Source: Gemmatimonadaceae bacterium (GTDB taxonomy: Bacteria > Gemmatimonadota > Gemmatimonadetes > Gemmatimonadales > Gemmatimonadaceae). Taken from it: 64,000 nucleotides of DNA. Position 1 is the stretch's first letter. Each line of letters starts with the position of its first letter. Position numbers and translations under genes: made by a program. The stretch spans positions 114,724 to 178,723 of the forward strand of contig JAICWO010000004.1 in assembly GCA_025934775.1 (NCBI GenBank). The letters run 5' to 3'. This document shows positions 4,005 to 54,511 of this stretch, piece by piece. The notes beneath the pieces were generated by a model. The model saw only the letters and a program-made list of their open reading frames with translations. It ran no database searches and was not told the DNA's origin.

Positions 4005-4123
4005 GAGACCAGTTTCGAGATTGCGAGACGCGGGCCTCGAGACGCCAGTCGGATTGTGAGTCGCGCACCGAACAATCTGACTCGATTCTCGCATCTCGAG
4101 TCTCGAGTCTCGCGACTGGTCTT
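4005..4123. repeat. inverted array of about 7-nt CGAGA units (REP-like) between convergent gene ends
   Basis: Left: TTCGAGA TTGCGAGA ...CCTCGAGA. Right: TCTCGCA TCTCGAG TCTCGAG TCTCGCG. Outer ends GAGACCAGT (4005-4013) and ACTGGTCTT (4115-4123) are complementary. Confidence 0.55.
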
Positions 4124-16595: not shown

Positions 16596-18539
16596 TCATG
16601 GGAGCGCGAACGCCACCAACTTCGCGCCTCGCGCCGCTCCCGTCGCAATCACCACGAACTGCTTTCCTCCCGCGGTGCGGTACGTCATCGGCGTCGCGTA
16701 TCCATTCTGCCCGAGCTCCGCCGACCACAACACCTGTCCGCTCCGCGCATCCACCGCGTACAGCGTCGAGCCGCCGCCGGTCAGAAACACCAAGCCGCCC
16801 GCCGTCACGATCGGTCCCGGCGCGCCGGCAACGCCGAGCATCGGCGGAAGGGTCACTCCTTTTAGTATCGGATTGTTACGAATCGACGGCGTGTCGCCGA
16901 TCGGGACGTTCCACGCCGTCTCGCCGGTGTTGAGATCGATCGCCGCGAGCGTGCCGTACGGCGGCTTGTTGATCGGGAGCGGCGGAACGCGCGCGCCGCT
17001 GTCGCTTGGAAAAGTGAGGCGGAGTCCCTGCTGCGTGAGGTCCGCCGTGTACGCCGCATCTACCGTGTCGGACTTGGGAGGTTGATAGATCTTGTACAGC
17101 GCGGGGCTGTTCGTGGCTTTGATGTAGAGCATCCCCGTCGTCGGGTCGAACGCGCCGCCGCCCCAGCCGGCGCCGCCGATCGCGCCCGGCATCACGATCG
17201 TCCCGCCCATCGACGGCGGCGTGAAGAGCGGGCCGAGGCGATAGTCCTTCGTCGCGTCGAGCGCGCGTGCGCGAATCGCCGGCGTGAAGTCGATCACGTC
17301 GCCGAAGCCGAAGCCCTGCTTCGCGAACGGCGCCGGCTTCGTCGGCACCGGCTGCGACTGCGCCGCCTTCTCACCCGGTACGTCGCTCTGTGGCACCGAG
17401 TGCTCCACAATCGGCCAGATCGGCTTGCCCGTCACGCGGTCGAACACGAACAGAAAGCCGGTCTTCGCCGGCACCGCGACGATGTCGCGCTCCGCGCCGT
17501 CCACGCGAACCGTGCCGAGTACGGGGGCGGCGGGAAGATCGTAATCCCACAACCCGTGATGCACGGTCTGGAATGACCAGACGCGTTTGCCGTGACGCGC
17601 GTCGAGACAGACGATGGATTCCGCGTCCAGATCATCGCCCAGCCGCGCGCCGCCGTACCAATCGTTGCTCGGGGTGCTCACCGGGAGATACACGAGACCG
17701 CGCTTGTCGTCGACGCTGAACGGCGCCCACACGTTGGTGTGGCCCGTCGTCTTCCACGAATCGTCGTGCCACGTGTCGGCACCGTCGTCGTGCGGCCCGC
17801 GCGGAACCGGACTCCAATCCCAGACGCGCTTGCCGGACTTCACGTCGAACGCTTGCACGTCGCCCGGTGGATCATTGGGGTAGATCAGCCGATCGGCGAC
17901 GCCGTTGCCGACGATGACGAGATTGCGCCAGACCACCGGCGGCGACGTCTCGGTGTAGTGCAGCTTGTTCACCGGCTTTCCGTTTCGCGCCAGCTCGCGC
18001 GTCAGATCCACCACGCCGGTGTCGCCGAACGACTTGATCGGCGCGCCGGTCGATGCATCGAGGGCGATCAGGTTCCAGCGGCTGTTCATGAAGATTCGCC
18101 GCTGGTGACCGTCACTCCACGTGGCGACGCCGCGATGCACGAAGCCAGTGCCGTTCGACGGCTGACCGGTCGCGTACACCTTGGGATCGTACGACCACAG
18201 CTCGCGTCCCGTGTTCGCGTCCAGCGCGACGACACGATTGAACGACGTGCTCAGAAAGAGCGTGTCGCCGATCATGAGCGGGGTCGCCTCGAAGCTGCCC
18301 GGCCGCGCGGACGGGTTCGTGGTCGGCACTTCCCCCGTCGCCCACTCCCACGCTTTCTGCAGCGACTTCACGTTGTCGCGGTTGATCTGCGTGAGGGTCG
18401 AGTATTTCGTCGAGCCGAGGTCGCCGCCGTAGGCGGGCCACTCGACGCGTTGCGCGTTCGCGATCGCGCTTGCAAGCATCAGCGCGCCGAGCACGCCGCC
18501 ACTGAGGTGCATGGCCACGCGTCGAAGGACACGGAGCAC
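16596..18539 (-). CDS. PQQ-dependent dehydrogenase (glucose/quinate/shikimate family beta-propeller)
   Basis: EWPAYGGDLGSTKYS opening and repeated W-motif propeller blades over about 640 aa. Start is ambiguous: GTG 18539 gives VLRVLRRVAMHLSGG..ANAQ, ATG 18512 and the track start 18611 are alternatives. The 5' end overlaps repeat copy 2. Confidence 0.85.
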   Translation of the reverse strand: MLRVLRRVAMHLSGGVLGALMLASAIANAQRVEWPAYGGDLGSTKYSTLTQINRDNVKSLQKAWEWATGEVPTTNPSARPGSFEATPLMIGDTLFLSTSFNRVVALDANTGRELWSYDPKVYATGQPSNGTGFVHRGVATWSDGHQRRIFMNSRWNLIALDASTGAPIKSFGDTGVVDLTRELARNGKPVNKLHYTETSPPVVWRNLVIVGNGVADRLIYPNDPPGDVQAFDVKSGKRVWDWSPVPRGPHDDGADTWHDDSWKTTGHTNVWAPFSVDDKRGLVYLPVSTPSNDWYGGARLGDDLDAESIVCLDARHGKRVWSFQTVHHGLWDYDLPAAPVLGTVRVDGAERDIVAVPAKTGFLFVFDRVTGKPIWPIVEHSVPQSDVPGEKAAQSQPVPTKPAPFAKQGFGFGDVIDFTPAIRARALDATKDYRLGPLFTPPSMGGTIVMPGAIGGAGWGGGAFDPTTGMLYIKATNSPALYKIYQPPKSDTVDAAYTADLTQQGLRLTFPSDSGARVPPLPINKPPYGTLAAIDLNTGETAWNVPIGDTPSIRNNPILKGVTLPPMLGVAGAPGPIVTAGGLVFLTGGGSTLYAVDARSGQVLWSAELGQNGYATPMTYRTAGGKQFVVIATGAARGAKLVAFALP

Positions 18540-18630
18540 ACGGGTGCCACTGGGATTCACGGAATGAGTGGTGGGAGTCGGCATCGTCGTTCTCCGTGTT
18601 GCTCCGTGCATCCCGTGTGTTCAGTGCCCC
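18527..18630. repeat. CACGG-unit inverted array, copy 2 (compact, about 104 nt)
   Basis: + arm is GGACACGGAGCACACGGGTGCCACTGGGATTCACGG. The reverse complement of the right arm is GGCACTGAACACACGGGATGCACGGAGCAACACGG. The arms are 17 nt apart. Confidence 0.6.
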
Positions 18631-48297: not shown

Positions 48298-51012
48298 GTG
48301 AGCCGCATCCCTGGACTGCGACGGTTGATGCGCATCGTGCGCAATGACACGGGTGTCGCGCGCGCCGTCGACGACGAGCTGCATTTCCACTTGGAGATGA
48401 CGATGCGCGAGCTGATCGACGCCGGCATGTCGCCGGACGATGCACGCCGCGAGGCGGGGCGGCGCTTCGGCGACGTGCAGCGCACGCGCGAGCGCCTCAC
48501 CGATCTCGACCGCGCGCTGCTCGGCCAGGAGCGGCGCGTGGAGCGCTGGAACGCGTTCGTGCAGGATCTCCGCTACGCGGTTCGCGGCATCCGGCAGAAG
48601 CCGGGGTTCGCGGCCGCGGTCGTCGTCACGCTCGGACTCGGCATCGGCGCGAACGCCGCGATGTTCCGCATCGTCGACCGGCTGCTCTTTCGGCCGCCGG
48701 CATATCTCGCGTCGCCCAACCTGGCCGGACGCATCTACTTCGAGCAGACGTTTCGCGACAAGCGCGCCGCGAATACGTACACGGGATACCGCCGCTACCT
48801 CGATCTGCGCGAGAACACGACCTCGTTCGATGCGATGGCGCCGTTCACCGTGAATTCGCTCGCGGTGGGTGAAGGCACCGATACGCACGAGATGAACCTT
48901 GGCGTCACCGGCGCCGACTTCTGGAAGCTGTTCGACGTGCGGCCGGTGCGTGGCCGGTTCTTCACCGCGCAGGAGGACAGGCCGCCCTACGGCGCGCACG
49001 TCGTGGTGCTCTCGTATGCGTTCTGGCAAACGCGCTTTGGTGGACGCGATCCGCTCGGCCAGCAGCTCCACATCGGACCGGCGAAGTACACGATCATCGG
49101 CGTGGCGCCGGAGCGGTTCACGGGCTTCAGCTCCGCGCCGGTGATCGGCTTCATCCCGATGACGGCGCAGATGGGCGACGCCAACCCGGACCTCAAGCAC
49201 CCGTGGTACGACACGTACTACATGTCGTGGTTCGAGATTTTCGCGCGCCGGAATTCCACGGTCACGCTCGCCGCGGCGAACGCCGACCTCACCCGCGCGC
49301 AGCAGCTCAGCTTCAAGAAGCAGGCGACGATCAGCAAGAATCTGTCATCGTTCGACATCGCAAGACCGTCGGCGTTCATCGGTCCGGTGCTGCTCAACCG
49401 CGGCCCGAATGAAGGGAAGGAGGCCAAGGTCGCGACGTGGCTGCTCGGGGTCGCCGGAATCGTGCTGCTGATCGCCTGCGCGAACGTGGCGAATCTGCTG
49501 CTCGCGCGTGCGCTCAAGCGCCGCCGCGAGATCGCGGTGCGCGTCGCGCTCGGCATCAGCCGGTGGCGCCTCTTCGCGCAATTGCTGACCGAGAGCCTGC
49601 TCCTCGCGGCACTCGCCGCCGTCGCGGCACTCGCGATCGCGCAGTGGGGCGGGGACGCGATGCGCCGCGTGCTCCTCGACGAAACGGCCCCGGGACCGAC
49701 CGCGTTCGCCGATTCCAGAATACTCATTGTCGTCGCGGCGCTGGCGGTGCTCACGGGCGTATTCTGCGGCCTGGCGCCAGTGCTCCAGGCCACGCGCGAG
49801 GATGTGGCGTCGGCGCTCAAGGCGGGATCGCGAGAGGGGACCGTCCATCGCTCGCGGCTGCGCGCCGGGCTCCTCGTGGCGCAGGCGGCGCTGTCGGTGT
49901 TGCTGCTCGTGGGCGCGGGGCTGTTCCTGCGCAGTCTCGCGAACGCCAACGGCGTACGACTCGGCTACGACGCCGATCGCCTCCTCTGGGTCGATCTGAA
50001 TGCGCGCGGCACCAAGCTCGATTCGGCGCAGCAGCGCGAGATCCGCCAGTCGCTGCTCGAGCGGGCCGCGCGGCTGCCGGGCGTCGAGGGCGCCGCGCGG
50101 GTGGTATCGGTTCCGTTCTGGATGACATGGGAAGAGGACCTGCGCGTCGCCGGCATCGATTCGGTGAGCAAGCTCGGCGACTTCACGTTGCAAGCGGTCA
50201 CACCCGGCTACTTCTCGACGAGCGGAACGCGGATCCTGCGCGGCCGCGGCATCACCGAAGAGGATCATGCGGGCGCTCCGCACGTCATGGTCGTCGACGA
50301 ATCGATGGCCGCGAAGCTCTGGCCCAACCAGAGTGCGCTCGGAAAGTGCGTGCGCTTAAACGCCGACACTGCGCCATGCAACACCGTCGTGGGTGTCGCC
50401 GAGGACATCCGCGGCAGCGACATCGGGAAGCGCGACATGCACTATTACCTATCGATCGCGCAGTTCCATCCCGAGACTGGCGGGCTATTCGTGCGAACCA
50501 GCGCGCCCGCCGCCGATCACGCGGAAGCGATTCGGCGCGGGCTCCAGCCGCTCATGCCGGGGGCGTCGTACGTCACGGTCACGCCGCTGTCCCAAGTCAT
50601 CGCGGGCGAGACACGTTCCTGGAAGATCGGCGCGACGATGTTCGCCGTGTTCGGCGTGCTCGCGCTCGTGATCGCGGCCATCGGACTGTACAGTGTCATC
50701 GCCTACAATGTCGCGCAGCGCACGCACGAGATGGGCGTCCGCGTGGCGCTCGGCGCGCAAGCGCGCAACGTGGTCGGTCTCGTGGTGCGTGAAGGACTGG
50801 TCATCGTACTGCCGGGAGTCGCACTCGGCGCGGCGATCGCACTGGTCGCGAGCCACTGGCTGCAGCCGTTGCTCTTTCAGACCTCGGCCAAAGATCCACC
50901 GACCATGGTGGGCGTCGCGGTCACGCTGATCCTGGTCGCGGTGCTCGCGAGCTGGATTCCGGCGTTGCGCGCGGCGCGTGTGGATCCGAGCGTAGCATTG
51001 CGCGCCGACTGA
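48298..51012 (+). CDS. duplicated FtsX/MacB-type permease (ADOP, duplicated orphan permease type)
   Basis: 904 aa. N-terminal cytoplasmic helix region, then two MacB-periplasmic plus FtsX 4-TM modules (LIACANVANLLLARA...; RTHEMGVRVALGA). It directly follows padR. Confidence 0.9.
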   Translation: MSRIPGLRRLMRIVRNDTGVARAVDDELHFHLEMTMRELIDAGMSPDDARREAGRRFGDVQRTRERLTDLDRALLGQERRVERWNAFVQDLRYAVRGIRQKPGFAAAVVVTLGLGIGANAAMFRIVDRLLFRPPAYLASPNLAGRIYFEQTFRDKRAANTYTGYRRYLDLRENTTSFDAMAPFTVNSLAVGEGTDTHEMNLGVTGADFWKLFDVRPVRGRFFTAQEDRPPYGAHVVVLSYAFWQTRFGGRDPLGQQLHIGPAKYTIIGVAPERFTGFSSAPVIGFIPMTAQMGDANPDLKHPWYDTYYMSWFEIFARRNSTVTLAAANADLTRAQQLSFKKQATISKNLSSFDIARPSAFIGPVLLNRGPNEGKEAKVATWLLGVAGIVLLIACANVANLLLARALKRRREIAVRVALGISRWRLFAQLLTESLLLAALAAVAALAIAQWGGDAMRRVLLDETAPGPTAFADSRILIVVAALAVLTGVFCGLAPVLQATREDVASALKAGSREGTVHRSRLRAGLLVAQAALSVLLLVGAGLFLRSLANANGVRLGYDADRLLWVDLNARGTKLDSAQQREIRQSLLERAARLPGVEGAARVVSVPFWMTWEEDLRVAGIDSVSKLGDFTLQAVTPGYFSTSGTRILRGRGITEEDHAGAPHVMVVDESMAAKLWPNQSALGKCVRLNADTAPCNTVVGVAEDIRGSDIGKRDMHYYLSIAQFHPETGGLFVRTSAPAADHAEAIRRGLQPLMPGASYVTVTPLSQVIAGETRSWKIGATMFAVFGVLALVIAAIGLYSVIAYNVAQRTHEMGVRVALGAQARNVVGLVVREGLVIVLPGVALGAAIALVASHWLQPLLFQTSAKDPPTMVGVAVTLILVAVLASWIPALRAARVDPSVALRAD

Positions 51013-51030
51013 CGGCGGCGCCCGAGAAGA

Positions 51031-51059
51031 AACGGGGAGCTCTGGTCGAGCTCCCCGTT
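51031..51059. terminator. bidirectional terminator-like hairpin between convergent genes
   Basis: AACGGGGAGCTC-TGGTC-GAGCTCCCCGTT, a perfect 12-bp stem. Confidence 0.65.
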
Positions 51060-51066
51060 CCGGTCG

Positions 51067-51309
51067 TCAGCTCCGGCTCCGGCTGCTGCTATGGCTCCGG
51101 TGTCCGCCCTTGCGCGACGACGAGTGGCTGGACGATTTGCCGCGGCCCGAGCCCGACTTCTTGCCGCCGTGATCCTGTTTGTTGACCGTGGCCCACGCAC
51201 GGCGCTCCGATTCCTTCTTGCCCACGCCCCGATCTTCGTAGCCTTGTTCGATGTGGTGGGCTTCGCGTTTCTGCTTCGAGCTGTACGAGCTCTTGTCGCC
51301 TTTCGGCAT
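51067..51309 (-). CDS. small conserved Lys/Ser/Gly-rich protein (MPKGDKSSY...RRAWATVNK family)
   Basis: ATG at 51309 preceded by GGAGGA. MPKGDKSSYSSKQKREAHHIEQGYEDRGVGKKESERRAWATVNKQDHGGKKSG matches a widespread small-protein pattern I recognise but cannot name. Confidence 0.7.
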   Translation of the reverse strand: MPKGDKSSYSSKQKREAHHIEQGYEDRGVGKKESERRAWATVNKQDHGGKKSGSGRGKSSSHSSSRKGGHRSHSSSRSRS

Positions 51310-51424
51310 AGTGTCCTCCGGATAGCGAGGGACCATCCCCTCACGATCATCGTTCGCAGAGCGCATGCCGAACGCGGCGTCGAACGTCGACTCACGGGCG
51401 CGGCCATTGACGCTCGGGTGGTTC

Positions 51425-51626
51425 AGGCGGAGGTTGTCGAAGGCGGAGGCTGTCGAAGGCGGAGGTTTGAGGCTGGAGGTTGGAGGTTTGACATGACCGG
51501 TGGTGCGTAGAGCATTGTCTAATAGCGCGATCCAACCGCCAGCCACTCGCTTGTAGCCTCGTGCGCTAAGTCTCCAACCTTCCGCCTCCAACCCTCCCGA
51601 CTCCAACCTCCAACCTCCAGCCTCCG
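51425..51626. repeat. inverted arrays: five GGAGG (51425-51491) facing five CCTCC (51571-51626)
   Basis: Left: AGGCGGAGGYTGTCGA x2, then AGGCGGAGGTTTGA and GGCTGGAGGTTGGAGGTTTGA. Right: CCAACCTTCCGCCTCCAACCCTCCCGACTCCAACCTCCAACCTCCAGCCTCC. A 20-nt exact complement (AACCTCCAACCTCCAGCCTC) links the arms. Confidence 0.8.
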
Positions 51627-51631
51627 ATTCA

Positions 51632-54511
51632 ATGTTGTCGCTCGCCACACTCACGCTCCTGCTGCAGGTCGCGACGGCTTCGTCGGCCGCATCCCAGCCT
51701 GCGCTGGCAGCGCGGAATCCCGCATTCGCTCGCGACGGACGACTCGCCGTGAGCGTGGAGGGCGATCTGTGGGTGAGAGCGACGGCTGGGCAATGGACAC
51801 GGATCACCTCGGGCGGCGCGTGGGATCGCGAGCCGGCGTGGACACCAGATGGCAGTGCGATCGTCTATTCATCCGACCAGTCCGGTACCTTCGCGCTCTG
51901 GCGTGTTGGCGTCGGACCGAGCGGCGCGACGGGCGAACCGACGCGGCTCACGACATCGACGCTCCCTGGTGGAGAGCCGATCGTGGCGCGCGACGGGCGA
52001 GTCGTCTTCGTGCGCGGCCGACTCGGTGCGGCGCGTCTGTGGGTGCTCGGCGCCGACGGGTCGGCATCACGATTCACGAAAGACACGGTGGTCGAAGAGT
52101 GGCCAGCGATCTCGGCGGACGGTGCACGGATCGCGTACGTCGCCGTCTCCGGTGCGTCGCGCACCCTCCGCATTCGAGATCTCTCGAGCGGCGCGGAATC
52201 GGTGGTGCTGAGCGATCCCCGCATCGAGCATCCGGCGTGGGCGCCGGCCGGCGATCGACTCTCCTGGACCGCGACCGGGCCTCGCGGCGCCGTGTACGTC
52301 ACGGCCGTCGACGGCCGATATACGAATCTCGTGAGCAGCCGGCACGCGGAGTCGGCTTGGAGCCCGGACGGCAAATCGCTCGCGCTCGCCGAGCTTCCCG
52401 CGAGTGAGGCGATCGCGCGCGTGGCGTACAACGGCGATCCGGATCGCACAGGCGATCGGGAGGCAAATCTCCTGGCGCCGAACACAGGCCATCTGTGGAC
52501 CGTCGAGGCGCCGAACGCGCCGGACGAAGCACTCGCCGAACAGGCGGCCGCGGCGATCGTGACGGATCGGGCGCAGCGAAACGCGGACGCCTTCGATCAG
52601 GTGTGGAATCGCACCGCGTCGCTGTACTACTCGTCGCCCGGCGCGGCGCCGCGACGCGCGCAGTGGGTCGCGCTCGCCGGCAAGTATCGTCCGCGCGCGC
52701 TCGCGGCAAAGGACGACGATGAGCTCGAGACCGTGCTGCACGAGATGCTCTCGCATCATCCAGCGTATCGTCAGCCAGCGATCGGGCGAGCCGCGGTATC
52801 GAGCGCGAATCCCGTCGCCACCGCAGCCGGCATCGAGATGCTCGCCAAGGGCGGCAACGTCGTTGACGCGGCGGTCGCGGTCTCGTTCGCGCTCGCCGTC
52901 GTAGAGCCGGACGCGAGTGGGCCGGGCGGCTATGGGCAGATGCTCGTCTACCGCAAAGGGATGGATCGTCCGCAGCTCATCGAGTTCATGACGCGCGTGC
53001 CGGAGGACGCGGGGCTCGAGAACACCAAGCTGCTGCAGAACGGCCGCCTCCCCGACGGCGGCCCGGCGGTGGTGAACGTGCCTGGCACCGTCGCAGCGAT
53101 GTATCTCGCATGGCAGAAGTACGGCAGCAAAAAGCTCGCGTGGTCGGATCTGCTGCAGCCGGCGATTCACGCCGCGCGCGACGGCTACGTCGTGAGCGAC
53201 GGCCTCGCGACGACGCTCGAGACCGAGCGCGACCAATTTCTGAAATATCCCGGCAGCCGTGCGCTCTTCTTCCGCAACGGCGAGCCGCTGCACGCGGGCG
53301 ACACGCTCGTGAACCGCGATCTCGCGTGGACGCTCGAACAGATCGCGAAAGGCGGCGCGGACGCGTTCTACAAAGGAGAGATCGCGCAGCGGCTGGTGAG
53401 CGACCTGCACGCGCACGGCAACGCGATGAAGCTCAGCGATCTCGCGCGGTACTACGCCGCCGAGCGGGAGCCCGTCGCCGGCGAGTATCGCGGGTACACG
53501 TTCTACTCGAGCGCGCCTCCGGTCTCCGGCGGTGCGGAGCTGGCGGCGAAGTTCAATCTGCTCGAGCAGTATCGCGATCCCAAGCCGTACACCGAGGACG
53601 CCGGGACGCTGCACGCGATGATCGCCGCCTGGCAGCTCGTGCCGAGTACACGGAACCGAATCGCCGATCCGGGACTGTGGCCGGTGAACATCGAGCCGTT
53701 CACGAGCAAGGACACGGCGCGCGTGCGGTGGGCGTGCTTCGATCCGAACAAGGCGATCGACCCGGCGGCGCTGCGCGGCGACACGCTCGTCTGCGGGAGC
53801 GCGCGTCACACGGCGAGCATCGAGCTGTCGCGCCCGCCGCAGTGCGAGTCCCACGGCTACGGCGCGCACCAGGCCTCCTCCTGCCGCTCGGCGGGCACGA
53901 CGGCCTTCACCGTCGCCGACGCGGCCGGCAACGTCGTCGCGGTCACGCAGACGCTCGGCACCTGGGGCGGCAACTTCTACGTGACGCCGGAACTAGGATT
54001 TTTATATAACGATAAACTATCCTCCTACGCGACGGACCCCGGCGCGTACGGCGCGCGGCTGCCGTTCGCGCGCCACGGCAGCACGATCGCCCCGACGATC
54101 GTCTTCGAGGGCCGCGGCGCGGCGAGTCATCCGGTGATGGCGCTCGGCGCGGCGGGGAACGCCTGGATCACGTCAGCGGTGTATCAGACGCTGGAGGGCA
54201 TGATCGACCAGCACCTCGATCCGCAGGCCGCGCTCGAGCTTCCGAGATTCCTCATCAGCGGCGGTTTCGGCGGCCGAGTTGGGCGTGGCGGCGCGGGCGC
54301 GGCGCCGCCGACCGGCGCGACGATCCAGCTCGAGGACGGGTTTTCCCCCGCGGTCATGAAGCGGCTCGAGGCACTCGGCTATCGCACGCAGATCGTGTCG
54401 CTCATGGGCGAGTTGCGGGAGGGGTACGGTGCCGCGGTGAAGATCGAGAACGGGCACGTGCTCGCGGGTGCGGATCCGCGTCGCGCCGGCGCCGCCGCGG
54501 CGATTCCTTGA
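51632..54511 (+). CDS. ggt: gamma-glutamyltransferase fused to an N-terminal TolB-like PD40 beta-propeller
   Basis: PD40 repeats (PAWTPDGSAIVYSSD, PAISADGARIAYV, PAWAPAGDRLSW, SAWSPDGKSLAL), then the GGT large subunit (ANPVATAAGIEMLAKGGNVVDAAVA) and a Thr nucleophile context (AGTTAFTVADAAGNVVAVTQT). Confidence 0.85.
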   Translation: MLSLATLTLLLQVATASSAASQPALAARNPAFARDGRLAVSVEGDLWVRATAGQWTRITSGGAWDREPAWTPDGSAIVYSSDQSGTFALWRVGVGPSGATGEPTRLTTSTLPGGEPIVARDGRVVFVRGRLGAARLWVLGADGSASRFTKDTVVEEWPAISADGARIAYVAVSGASRTLRIRDLSSGAESVVLSDPRIEHPAWAPAGDRLSWTATGPRGAVYVTAVDGRYTNLVSSRHAESAWSPDGKSLALAELPASEAIARVAYNGDPDRTGDREANLLAPNTGHLWTVEAPNAPDEALAEQAAAAIVTDRAQRNADAFDQVWNRTASLYYSSPGAAPRRAQWVALAGKYRPRALAAKDDDELETVLHEMLSHHPAYRQPAIGRAAVSSANPVATAAGIEMLAKGGNVVDAAVAVSFALAVVEPDASGPGGYGQMLVYRKGMDRPQLIEFMTRVPEDAGLENTKLLQNGRLPDGGPAVVNVPGTVAAMYLAWQKYGSKKLAWSDLLQPAIHAARDGYVVSDGLATTLETERDQFLKYPGSRALFFRNGEPLHAGDTLVNRDLAWTLEQIAKGGADAFYKGEIAQRLVSDLHAHGNAMKLSDLARYYAAEREPVAGEYRGYTFYSSAPPVSGGAELAAKFNLLEQYRDPKPYTEDAGTLHAMIAAWQLVPSTRNRIADPGLWPVNIEPFTSKDTARVRWACFDPNKAIDPAALRGDTLVCGSARHTASIELSRPPQCESHGYGAHQASSCRSAGTTAFTVADAAGNVVAVTQTLGTWGGNFYVTPELGFLYNDKLSSYATDPGAYGARLPFARHGSTIAPTIVFEGRGAASHPVMALGAAGNAWITSAVYQTLEGMIDQHLDPQAALELPRFLISGGFGGRVGRGGAGAAPPTGATIQLEDGFSPAVMKRLEALGYRTQIVSLMGELREGYGAAVKIENGHVLAGADPRRAGAAAAIP

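Follow-up and report, generated by a model that had tools for sequence, protein, structure and literature searches.

The 64,000-nt stretch of DNA considered here, which I will call the window, contains between two divergent genes a spacer in which five copies of GGAGG face five copies of CCTCC. The locus raises the question whether Shine-Dalgarno (SD) cores and their complements have been arrayed there to control translation or whether they are there for some other reason. Downstream lies a gene on the + strand (51632..54511) encoding a 959-aa fusion of a PD40 propeller with a gamma-glutamyltranspeptidase (Pfam PF07676 and PF01019), referred to below as ggt, whose start codon is conserved in relatives. 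Divergent from it, on the − strand (51067..51309), is a gene whose translation is a Lys/Ser-rich protein of 80 aa (MPKGDK...); a Pfam search with this protein found no match. The initial annotation of the locus proposed SD sequestration, a sponge RNA, or another palindromic array family. It is the last of these that proved right: the arms are dispersed tandem arrays of 7-nt units, arranged in inverted pairs.

Rereading the sequence confirmed the elements initially described: GGAGG at 51429, 51445, 51461, 51475, and 51482, CCTCC at 51585, 51593, 51607, 51614, and 51621, an exact complement of 20 nt between the arms (51469-51488 and 51605-51624), and TTGACA at 51488-51493 by a comparatively AT-rich centre. 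A repeat search detected inverted-repeat pairs between the arms (I1-I7) and gave 23 nt, at 96%, as the longest imperfect pairing. The left arm, read on the + strand, consists of an outer part (51425..51472), in which the 16-nt unit AGGCGGAGGYTGTCGA is repeated 2.7 times (TRF period 16, 92% matches), and an inner part (51461..51491) of about four GGAGGTT-type heptamers (TRF period 7, 4.0 copies of GGAGGTT). The centre (51492..51571) is a unique sequence of 80 nt that hit only itself when searched against the genome. The right arm (51572..51626, + strand) has 7.6 copies of CTCCAAC-type heptamers (TRF period 7/14) and ends 6 nt 5' of the ggt start, the final CCTCC ending at 51625 and the sequence GATTCA filling the gap to the ATG at 51632. 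As originally stated, that ATG lacks an SD and the small gene possesses one, GGAGGA.

The clustering of GGAGG and CCTCC at the ggt locus is more than chance. With up to one mismatch allowed, GGAGGNNGGAGG occurs 11 times in the window, as compared to 4.85 ± 1.99 times in shuffled sequences, none of which (0/100) reached 11, and 8 of the 11 occurrences fall in the array locus.

The window comes from a Gemmatimonadaceae MAG of 4.88 Mb (67% GC, 99.3% complete), labeled G000 where it must be told apart from other genomes. The initial suggestion of a genome-wide search for clustered arrays was followed, with the result that only 15 clusters have four or more of either motif, while doublets of GGAGG or CCTCC at 7-nt spacing occur at 34 loci, in most of which a G-rich array is followed, after a short centre, by a C-rich one. 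TRF found 330 period-7 arrays of at least three copies, totaling 11 kb, and no other period covers as many bases. Chief among the units are GGAGAGT (79 arrays), the CCACGGT group (about 38), and GGAGGTT/GGAGGCT (25), along with AGAGAGT and CGAGAGT. Most members of the family have a unit, GGAGAGT or CCACGGT for instance, that spells no full SD or anti-SD. Matches to the arms of the ggt copy turned up at more than 15 further loci, and its 80-nt centre has no second copy in the genome. Copies of the family have the short unit alone in common, and their loops are diverse.

Two further arrays, more decayed, lie elsewhere in the window. A dehydrogenase gene has at its 5' end (18512-18620) an inverted CACGG/CCGTG array, again with the G-rich arm first, and positions 4081-4112 hold a C-type array of 4.6 copies of CTCGAGT.

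The arrangement of the arrays follows a strict rule. Strong G/C skew is found in 131 arrays genome-wide, spread across many contigs, and 113 of them lie outside crude gene calls. Among these skewed arrays there are 42 adjacent pairs, every one with the G-rich array on the left and the C-rich array on the right and none reversed. Since a pair is palindromic, this order is the same on whichever strand it is read. In all 42 pairs the arms are complementary, and their duplexes are calculated at −23 to −76 kcal/mol. Hairpins behind stop codons that are not built of repeats are only weakly G-first (153:126), which makes strict polarity a peculiarity of the arrays.

Placement of the pairs was judged by a crude, self-trained gene call (3504 genes). 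Same-strand spacers hold 14 pairs on the − strand (1104 such junctions genome-wide) and 10 on the + strand (1060 junctions), and convergent spacers hold 11 (649 junctions). Divergent spacers, with 644 junctions, have a single pair, or two if one counts the ggt locus, which was scored as a + strand spacer because the crude gene call missed the small gene. Six more pairs lie within crude gene calls. Divergent spacers thus host only 1-2 of the 42 pairs, as compared to a background of 19%. Among 54 cases, 40 have a G-type arm that begins between −3 and +8 nt relative to a stop codon. C-type arms are found either 20-58 nt from the stop or directly 5' of the next start codon, the latter in up to about 30 genes. 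The hosts include the operon-internal spacers rplB-rpsS and rplL-rpoB.

By these standards the copy at ggt is atypical. Its position is a divergent 5' region, not the usual place after a stop codon, and its centre is unusually long, about 80-98 nt. Its long, unique centre and the additional 16-nt outer unit set it apart from a textbook member of the family. With this reservation, the ggt locus is probably a member of a dispersed class of intergenic palindromes of Gemmatimonadaceae soil bacteria, similar to REP elements, whose arms are tandem arrays of units of about 7 nt (TGGAGNN-type in the G-rich arrays of this genome), GGAGG being the flavor that the unit happens to have.

The initial annotation counted a lack of the arrays at orthologous loci among the findings that would speak against its functional readings, and this lack is what was observed. 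I recovered nine related ggt-fusion loci and four further views from genomes of the same genus, and the arrays are absent from all of them. The orthologous loci of seven relatives have, instead of arrays, GGAG 5-8 nt 5' of the ATG, and it is the position of this SD that the C-arm occupies in G000. Even the closest relative, L001, lacks the arrays, although its ggt product is 85% identical in amino acid sequence and it has the same divergent small gene and synteny (both conserved in L009 as well). The spacer in L001 is 170 nt in length. Homology to it takes in the leader of the small gene, stops at the first GGAGGTTG, and begins again at the ATG, and the interruption marks about 190 nt as specific to the lineage of G000. 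This stretch replaces the short leader with its GGAG that relatives possess. The comparison shows that the array element is lineage-specific at this locus and has displaced the SD of ggt. Covariation between the arms, also proposed as a check, cannot exist if relatives have no arms.

I considered whether the 80-nt centre represents an ancestral 5'UTR bracketed by arms that grew independently, but the best score was matched by 36 of 500 shuffles and is not significant, and the idea was dropped. A metagenome scan with a 26-mer from the ggt start found no match. Scanning with a 16-mer from the leader of the small gene gave at least 119 matches, and none of the 80 loci fetched was homologous to the ggt locus.

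Two hairpins accompany the small gene. In its − strand leader, just 5' of the SD, is GAGGG-GAUGGU-CCCUC (window 51321-51345), identical in L001. Between the small gene and an FtsX-type permease gene is a bidirectional, terminator-like hairpin (51029-51061; ACGGGGAGCTC / GAGCTCCCCGT), of an ordinary kind and likewise kept in L001.

These comparisons bear directly on the possibility of dedicated translational control, according to which CCUCC in the leader would bind the GGAGG tracts or the small gene's GGAGGA by base pairing and so gate ribosomes at one or both of the divergent genes. It is true that the C-arm stops just short of an SD-less start, that a long duplex between the arms is possible, and that the organism does use SDs, as judged by a peak of GGAG at −14 to −9 across the genome (a 16S rRNA gene was not found in the assembly). 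Sequestration, however, presupposes something to sequester, and ggt has no SD here to mask, whereas its orthologs have an ordinary GGAG and no arrays. Masking of the small gene's SD fares no better, since L001 keeps the same SD and the same leader hairpin without arrays. Furthermore, upwards of 30 unrelated junctions have the same kind of array, most of them following a stop codon, and the units used by sister species (TAGGGTN, GGTCTCN, TTGCTGG) do not resemble an SD. I regard dedicated control as very improbable, and an SD-sequestering riboregulator in particular was rejected because of the missing SD and the absence of arrays in relatives.

The proposal of a sponge RNA, transcribed from the G-arm and binding ribosomes or the GGA-binding protein CsrA, has in its favor that every G-type unit contains GGA and that the genome does encode CsrA, a point on which the initial annotation had advised a check. 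The one csrA gene found (C35:131267-131422, in L010) lies between flgK and motA, which indicates a flagellar CsrA in a FliW-type context. At a permissive threshold, Rfam returned nothing better than E = 1, only chance matches to miRNA-like hairpins, and thus no match to the CsrB/RsmZ families. The GGA motifs would lie in a long stem and not in hairpin loops, the consensus scans gave neither promoter nor terminator to delimit a small RNA, and sister genomes have units that lack GGA altogether. A CsrB/RsmZ-type sponge was rejected on the basis of the Rfam result, the GGA motifs in the stem, and the flagellar context of csrA; the sponge reading as a whole seems to me scarcely credible.

How, then, might ggt be expressed? 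Upstream of the gene is a promoter-like element (51407..51435, + strand) composed of TTGACG (51407-51412), a 17-nt spacer, and GAGGTT (51430-51435), the last of which doubles as the first GGAGGTT of the array. The TTGAC[GT]-N17 arrangement recurs in all five of the relatives that were read (overall, TTGAC[GT]-N17-xAxxxT), with a second box of GAG[GC]TT in L001, L003, and L009, CATCCT in L004, and GACCTT in L002. A scan for consensus sigma-70 promoters called none, this element included, and its function as a promoter is putative.

Were ggt transcribed from the conserved upstream element, the entire array element would become its 5' leader. The initial annotation had foreseen a long GGAGG:CCUCC duplex if transcription crosses both arms, and in silico this holds, at −81 kcal/mol. 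The leader that begins at the conserved element is predicted to fold at −81.3 kcal/mol (z = −2.3; for the opposite strand, z = −3.0), with the long stem ending just 5' of an AU-rich ggt start. With the start so placed, translation of ggt would have to begin without an SD. The stem leader may then set translation at a lower, SD-independent level, with no switching.

A second candidate, weaker, lies at the edge of the centre: TTGACA (51488-93) followed after 16 nt by GAGCAT (51510-15). If this were the promoter, then the ggt mRNA would carry only the G-poor CCUCC/CUCCAAC arm, an unstructured leader that would support SD-independent initiation, and C-type arrays in general would be leader modules. 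A locus elsewhere in the genome (C20:332848-332895) has just such an appearance. There, downstream of a near-consensus promoter (TTGACA-N17-TATTCT), the leader consists almost wholly of a C-type heptamer array that ends 4 nt 5' of the ATG of a small gene that has no SD and that presumably encodes a BlaI/CopY-like protein, judging from its N-terminus. C-type arrays also adjoin a gnd-like gene (C5:49540) and rpsS, both of which have well-defined starts, and the up to about 30 genes with a C-type arm just before the start point in the same direction. Several genes whose starts are secure have a C-type array at the SD position, and so a G-poor leader is evidently compatible with expression. At ggt itself, however, the centre offers a weak −10 candidate and no promoter called by the consensus scan, and the element conserved in relatives is the upstream one. 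I consider a promoter in the centre unlikely, although the C-arm-only leader that it would provide counts somewhat against the account that begins at the conserved upstream element.

An intrinsic terminator, a GC-rich hairpin followed by a U-tract, was also considered for the array itself and rejected: a terminator scan of 50900-51900 found no terminator-like site, and directly 3' of the C-arm comes GATTCAATG. More generally, arrays are found inside obligatory operons (rplB-rpsS and rplL-rpoB) and so cannot be efficient terminators everywhere, a restriction on what any account of the class may claim. By analogy with extragenic palindromes of the REP type, I suppose that members of the class act as RNA/DNA hairpins that are tolerated directly behind stop codons or that serve there as transcript punctuation. 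The arrays may grow and become homogeneous through slippage of the 7-nt unit and through copying between arms and between loci.

The rplB-rpsS spacer offers a view of the same position in many related genomes. Junctions from 15 genomes of the same genus (L016-L030) were pulled by means of RpsS. The spacer is compact, 14 nt, in seven genomes. Six have an inverted array at or close to the stop codon of rplB, and the unit differs in each: GGAGGTT type in G000, GAGAGGN / CCTCTAT in G160, GGTCYCA in G151, TAGGGTN in G159, the 8-mer GCTCGGCA in G153, and TTGCTGG in G154. A possible duplication of GAGA at the rplB-rpsS copy is indistinguishable from unit sequence. Exact arrays of three GGAGGYT or three GGAGAGT are almost private to G000 among 150 members of the Gemmatimonadaceae. 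Private and species-specific units imply a rapid turnover of units within a lasting architecture. Taken together, the absence of arrays at orthologous ggt loci and the different units in sister species indicate that GGAGG is the flavor of this genome's unit and not an SD/anti-SD design.

Polarity persists through these changes of unit. A 345-kb sample of G159 contains three further families, TAGGGTN, GGCGTGG, and AGGGAAG, and the G-rich arm comes first in each pair seen there. A whole-genome pattern search for the GGTCTCN family in G155, G030, G095, and G151 found 202 matches to GGTCTC...GAGACC and none to the reverse. As GGTCTCN is neither G/C-skewed nor SD-like, avoidance of spurious SDs is not the whole reason for polarity. 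The polarity of the GGTCTCN arrays is explained neither by slippage nor by avoidance of spurious SDs, and it is a difficulty for the REP-like account as I have given it.

Some other features of the sister genomes deserve mention. The GGTCTCN copies of G151 have a common loop motif, GGTG-AAC-GGCG...GCCGTT-CACC; AACGGC/GCCGTT is not enriched in the loops of G000 (6/42, against a background of 7%). G044, also of the Gemmatimonadaceae, has 93 matches to three copies of GGAGGTY (a pattern that served as the reversed control), an independent and much larger family of SD-like arrays. Finally, C-type arrays occur within the coding region of a Lys-rich C-terminal tail, CGCCCAA at L018:310-340 (G143) and CGCCCCA at L023:233-264 (G159), the host being a ribosomal-protein gene upstream of rplW/rplB. 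Low-complexity coding tails can evidently be invaded.

One might also postulate a process in Gemmatimonadaceae, undescribed and indifferent to the unit, that makes or maintains hairpins, always sets the G/T-rich array 5' of its complement, docks on stop codons, and takes up a new unit in each species, even at rplB-rpsS. The SD-core unit would then have made the elements relevant to translation in this genome, with C-arm leaders replacing the SD at ggt, at the gnd-like and BlaI-like genes, and at others. I judge this quite unlikely. If it were true, the hairpins would not be passive products of slippage.

What can be said plainly is that the ggt element belongs to the family, that the family has a fixed polarity and complementary arms, that the element is absent at orthologous loci, and that ggt has lost its SD. 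The tempting regulatory story is unsupported at this locus, and the SD/anti-SD look is a by-product of an amplified 7-mer. Arrays that displace SDs and confuse start-codon calls are relevant to the annotation of such genomes. A single genus of Gemmatimonadaceae provides a natural comparative series, in which the same spacers are empty or filled with different units. The absolute polarity (42:0 in G000 and 202:0 for GGTCTCN in sister genomes), combined with the anchoring to stop codons, could make the origin and function of the class testable.

The class may be compared with several known repeat systems. REP sequences and BIMEs of enterobacteria and pseudomonads (including the REPIN-RAYT system) are dispersed, species-specific, imperfect palindromes, extragenic and often a few nucleotides from stop codons, found also inside operons, with a fixed orientation within pairs, and they form RNA hairpins. 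The arrays described here resemble them in being dispersed extragenic palindromes near stops and inside operons, with a fixed pair orientation. REP elements, however, have a fixed sequence of 20-40 nt, whereas the arms here are built of tandem copies of a short unit, and a conserved GTAG-type head is lacking. A search with PF01797 for a Y1 (RAYT) transposase found no match in this 99.3%-complete genome, the controls being positive in 6 of 14 genomes. Membership in REP/REPIN-RAYT proper was rejected because there is no such transposase and no conserved palindrome, with the unit alone held in common and loops that are diverse. As to MITEs, the ggt locus has inverted arms, and its internal core is unique.

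TAACTGA heptamers, found as direct repeats in Beggiatoaceae, cyanobacteria, and Bacteroidetes (MacGregor 2015, PMC4679880), lie a few nucleotides 5' of starts that lack a canonical ribosome-binding site, including those of ribosomal-protein operons, much as the C-arm arrays here adjoin SD-less starts. The TAACTGA repeats, however, consist of a single unit across phyla, are almost never inverted (there is one indirect repeat), and have been proposed as protein-binding sites (PMC4679880). The present arrays come in inverted pairs, have units that are specific to a lineage, and are anchored to stop codons.

The closest parallel is to the heptamer repeats GGGAATC of Xanthomonas and GGGGAYT of Nostoc (Rehm et al. 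2015, PMC4692102). Bacteria have been recognized since 2007 as having more heptamer repeats than expected, an excess that is still unexplained, and no function has been assigned to the Xanthomonas and Nostoc repeats (PMC4692102). Sites number about 185 per genome (about 100-200) and are mostly intergenic; the upstream ORF is 28 nt away on average, and only 7-8% of sites fall between divergent ORFs. Inverted pairs are frequent and convergent, G-rich on the plus strand and then on the minus strand, with 70-75 of them in Xanthomonas. In both organisms the number of units varies, length and sequence differ between related species, and the G-rich strand is the coding one downstream of stops and the non-coding one upstream of starts (PMC4692102).

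It has been proposed for these heptamers that non-B DNA structure modulates transcription, which in the present case would mean a two-tetrad G-quadruplex on the G-arm, an i-motif, or a cruciform. Each unit of the left arm has at least GG with a 7-nt period in every lineage examined, GGAGGTTGGAGGTTGGAGG has GG runs with loops of 1-2 nt, and polarity and strand rule equal those of the reported G4-forming heptamers. Most units, however, offer one GG per 7 nt (GGAGAGT, GGACCGT, GGTCTCN), at best a weak two-tetrad structure, and the arms can be fully paired as duplex or hairpin. For these reasons non-B structure strikes me as distinctly improbable. The units considered here (GGAGGTT, GGAGAGT, GGACCGT) differ from those of Xanthomonas and Nostoc in having GG only, not GGG or GGGG, and so canonical G4 formation is doubtful.

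The Gemmatimonadaceae arrays differ also in belonging to another phylum and in comprising several unit families per genome, species-specific within one genus. In G000 the unit is an SD core, and some genes in consequence have the complementary arm in place of an SD. In other respects the agreement with Xanthomonas and Nostoc is close. There are tandem 7-nt units (at ggt, 4.0 copies of GGAGGTT and 7.6 of CTCCAAC) at many dispersed sites that are mostly intergenic, scarce between divergent genes, and close to the upstream stop; the pairs are convergent without exception and follow the same strand rule, G-type after stops and C-type before starts. The class to which the ggt locus belongs has already been described in Xanthomonas, and the copy at ggt is not a purpose-built ribosome-binding-site switch.
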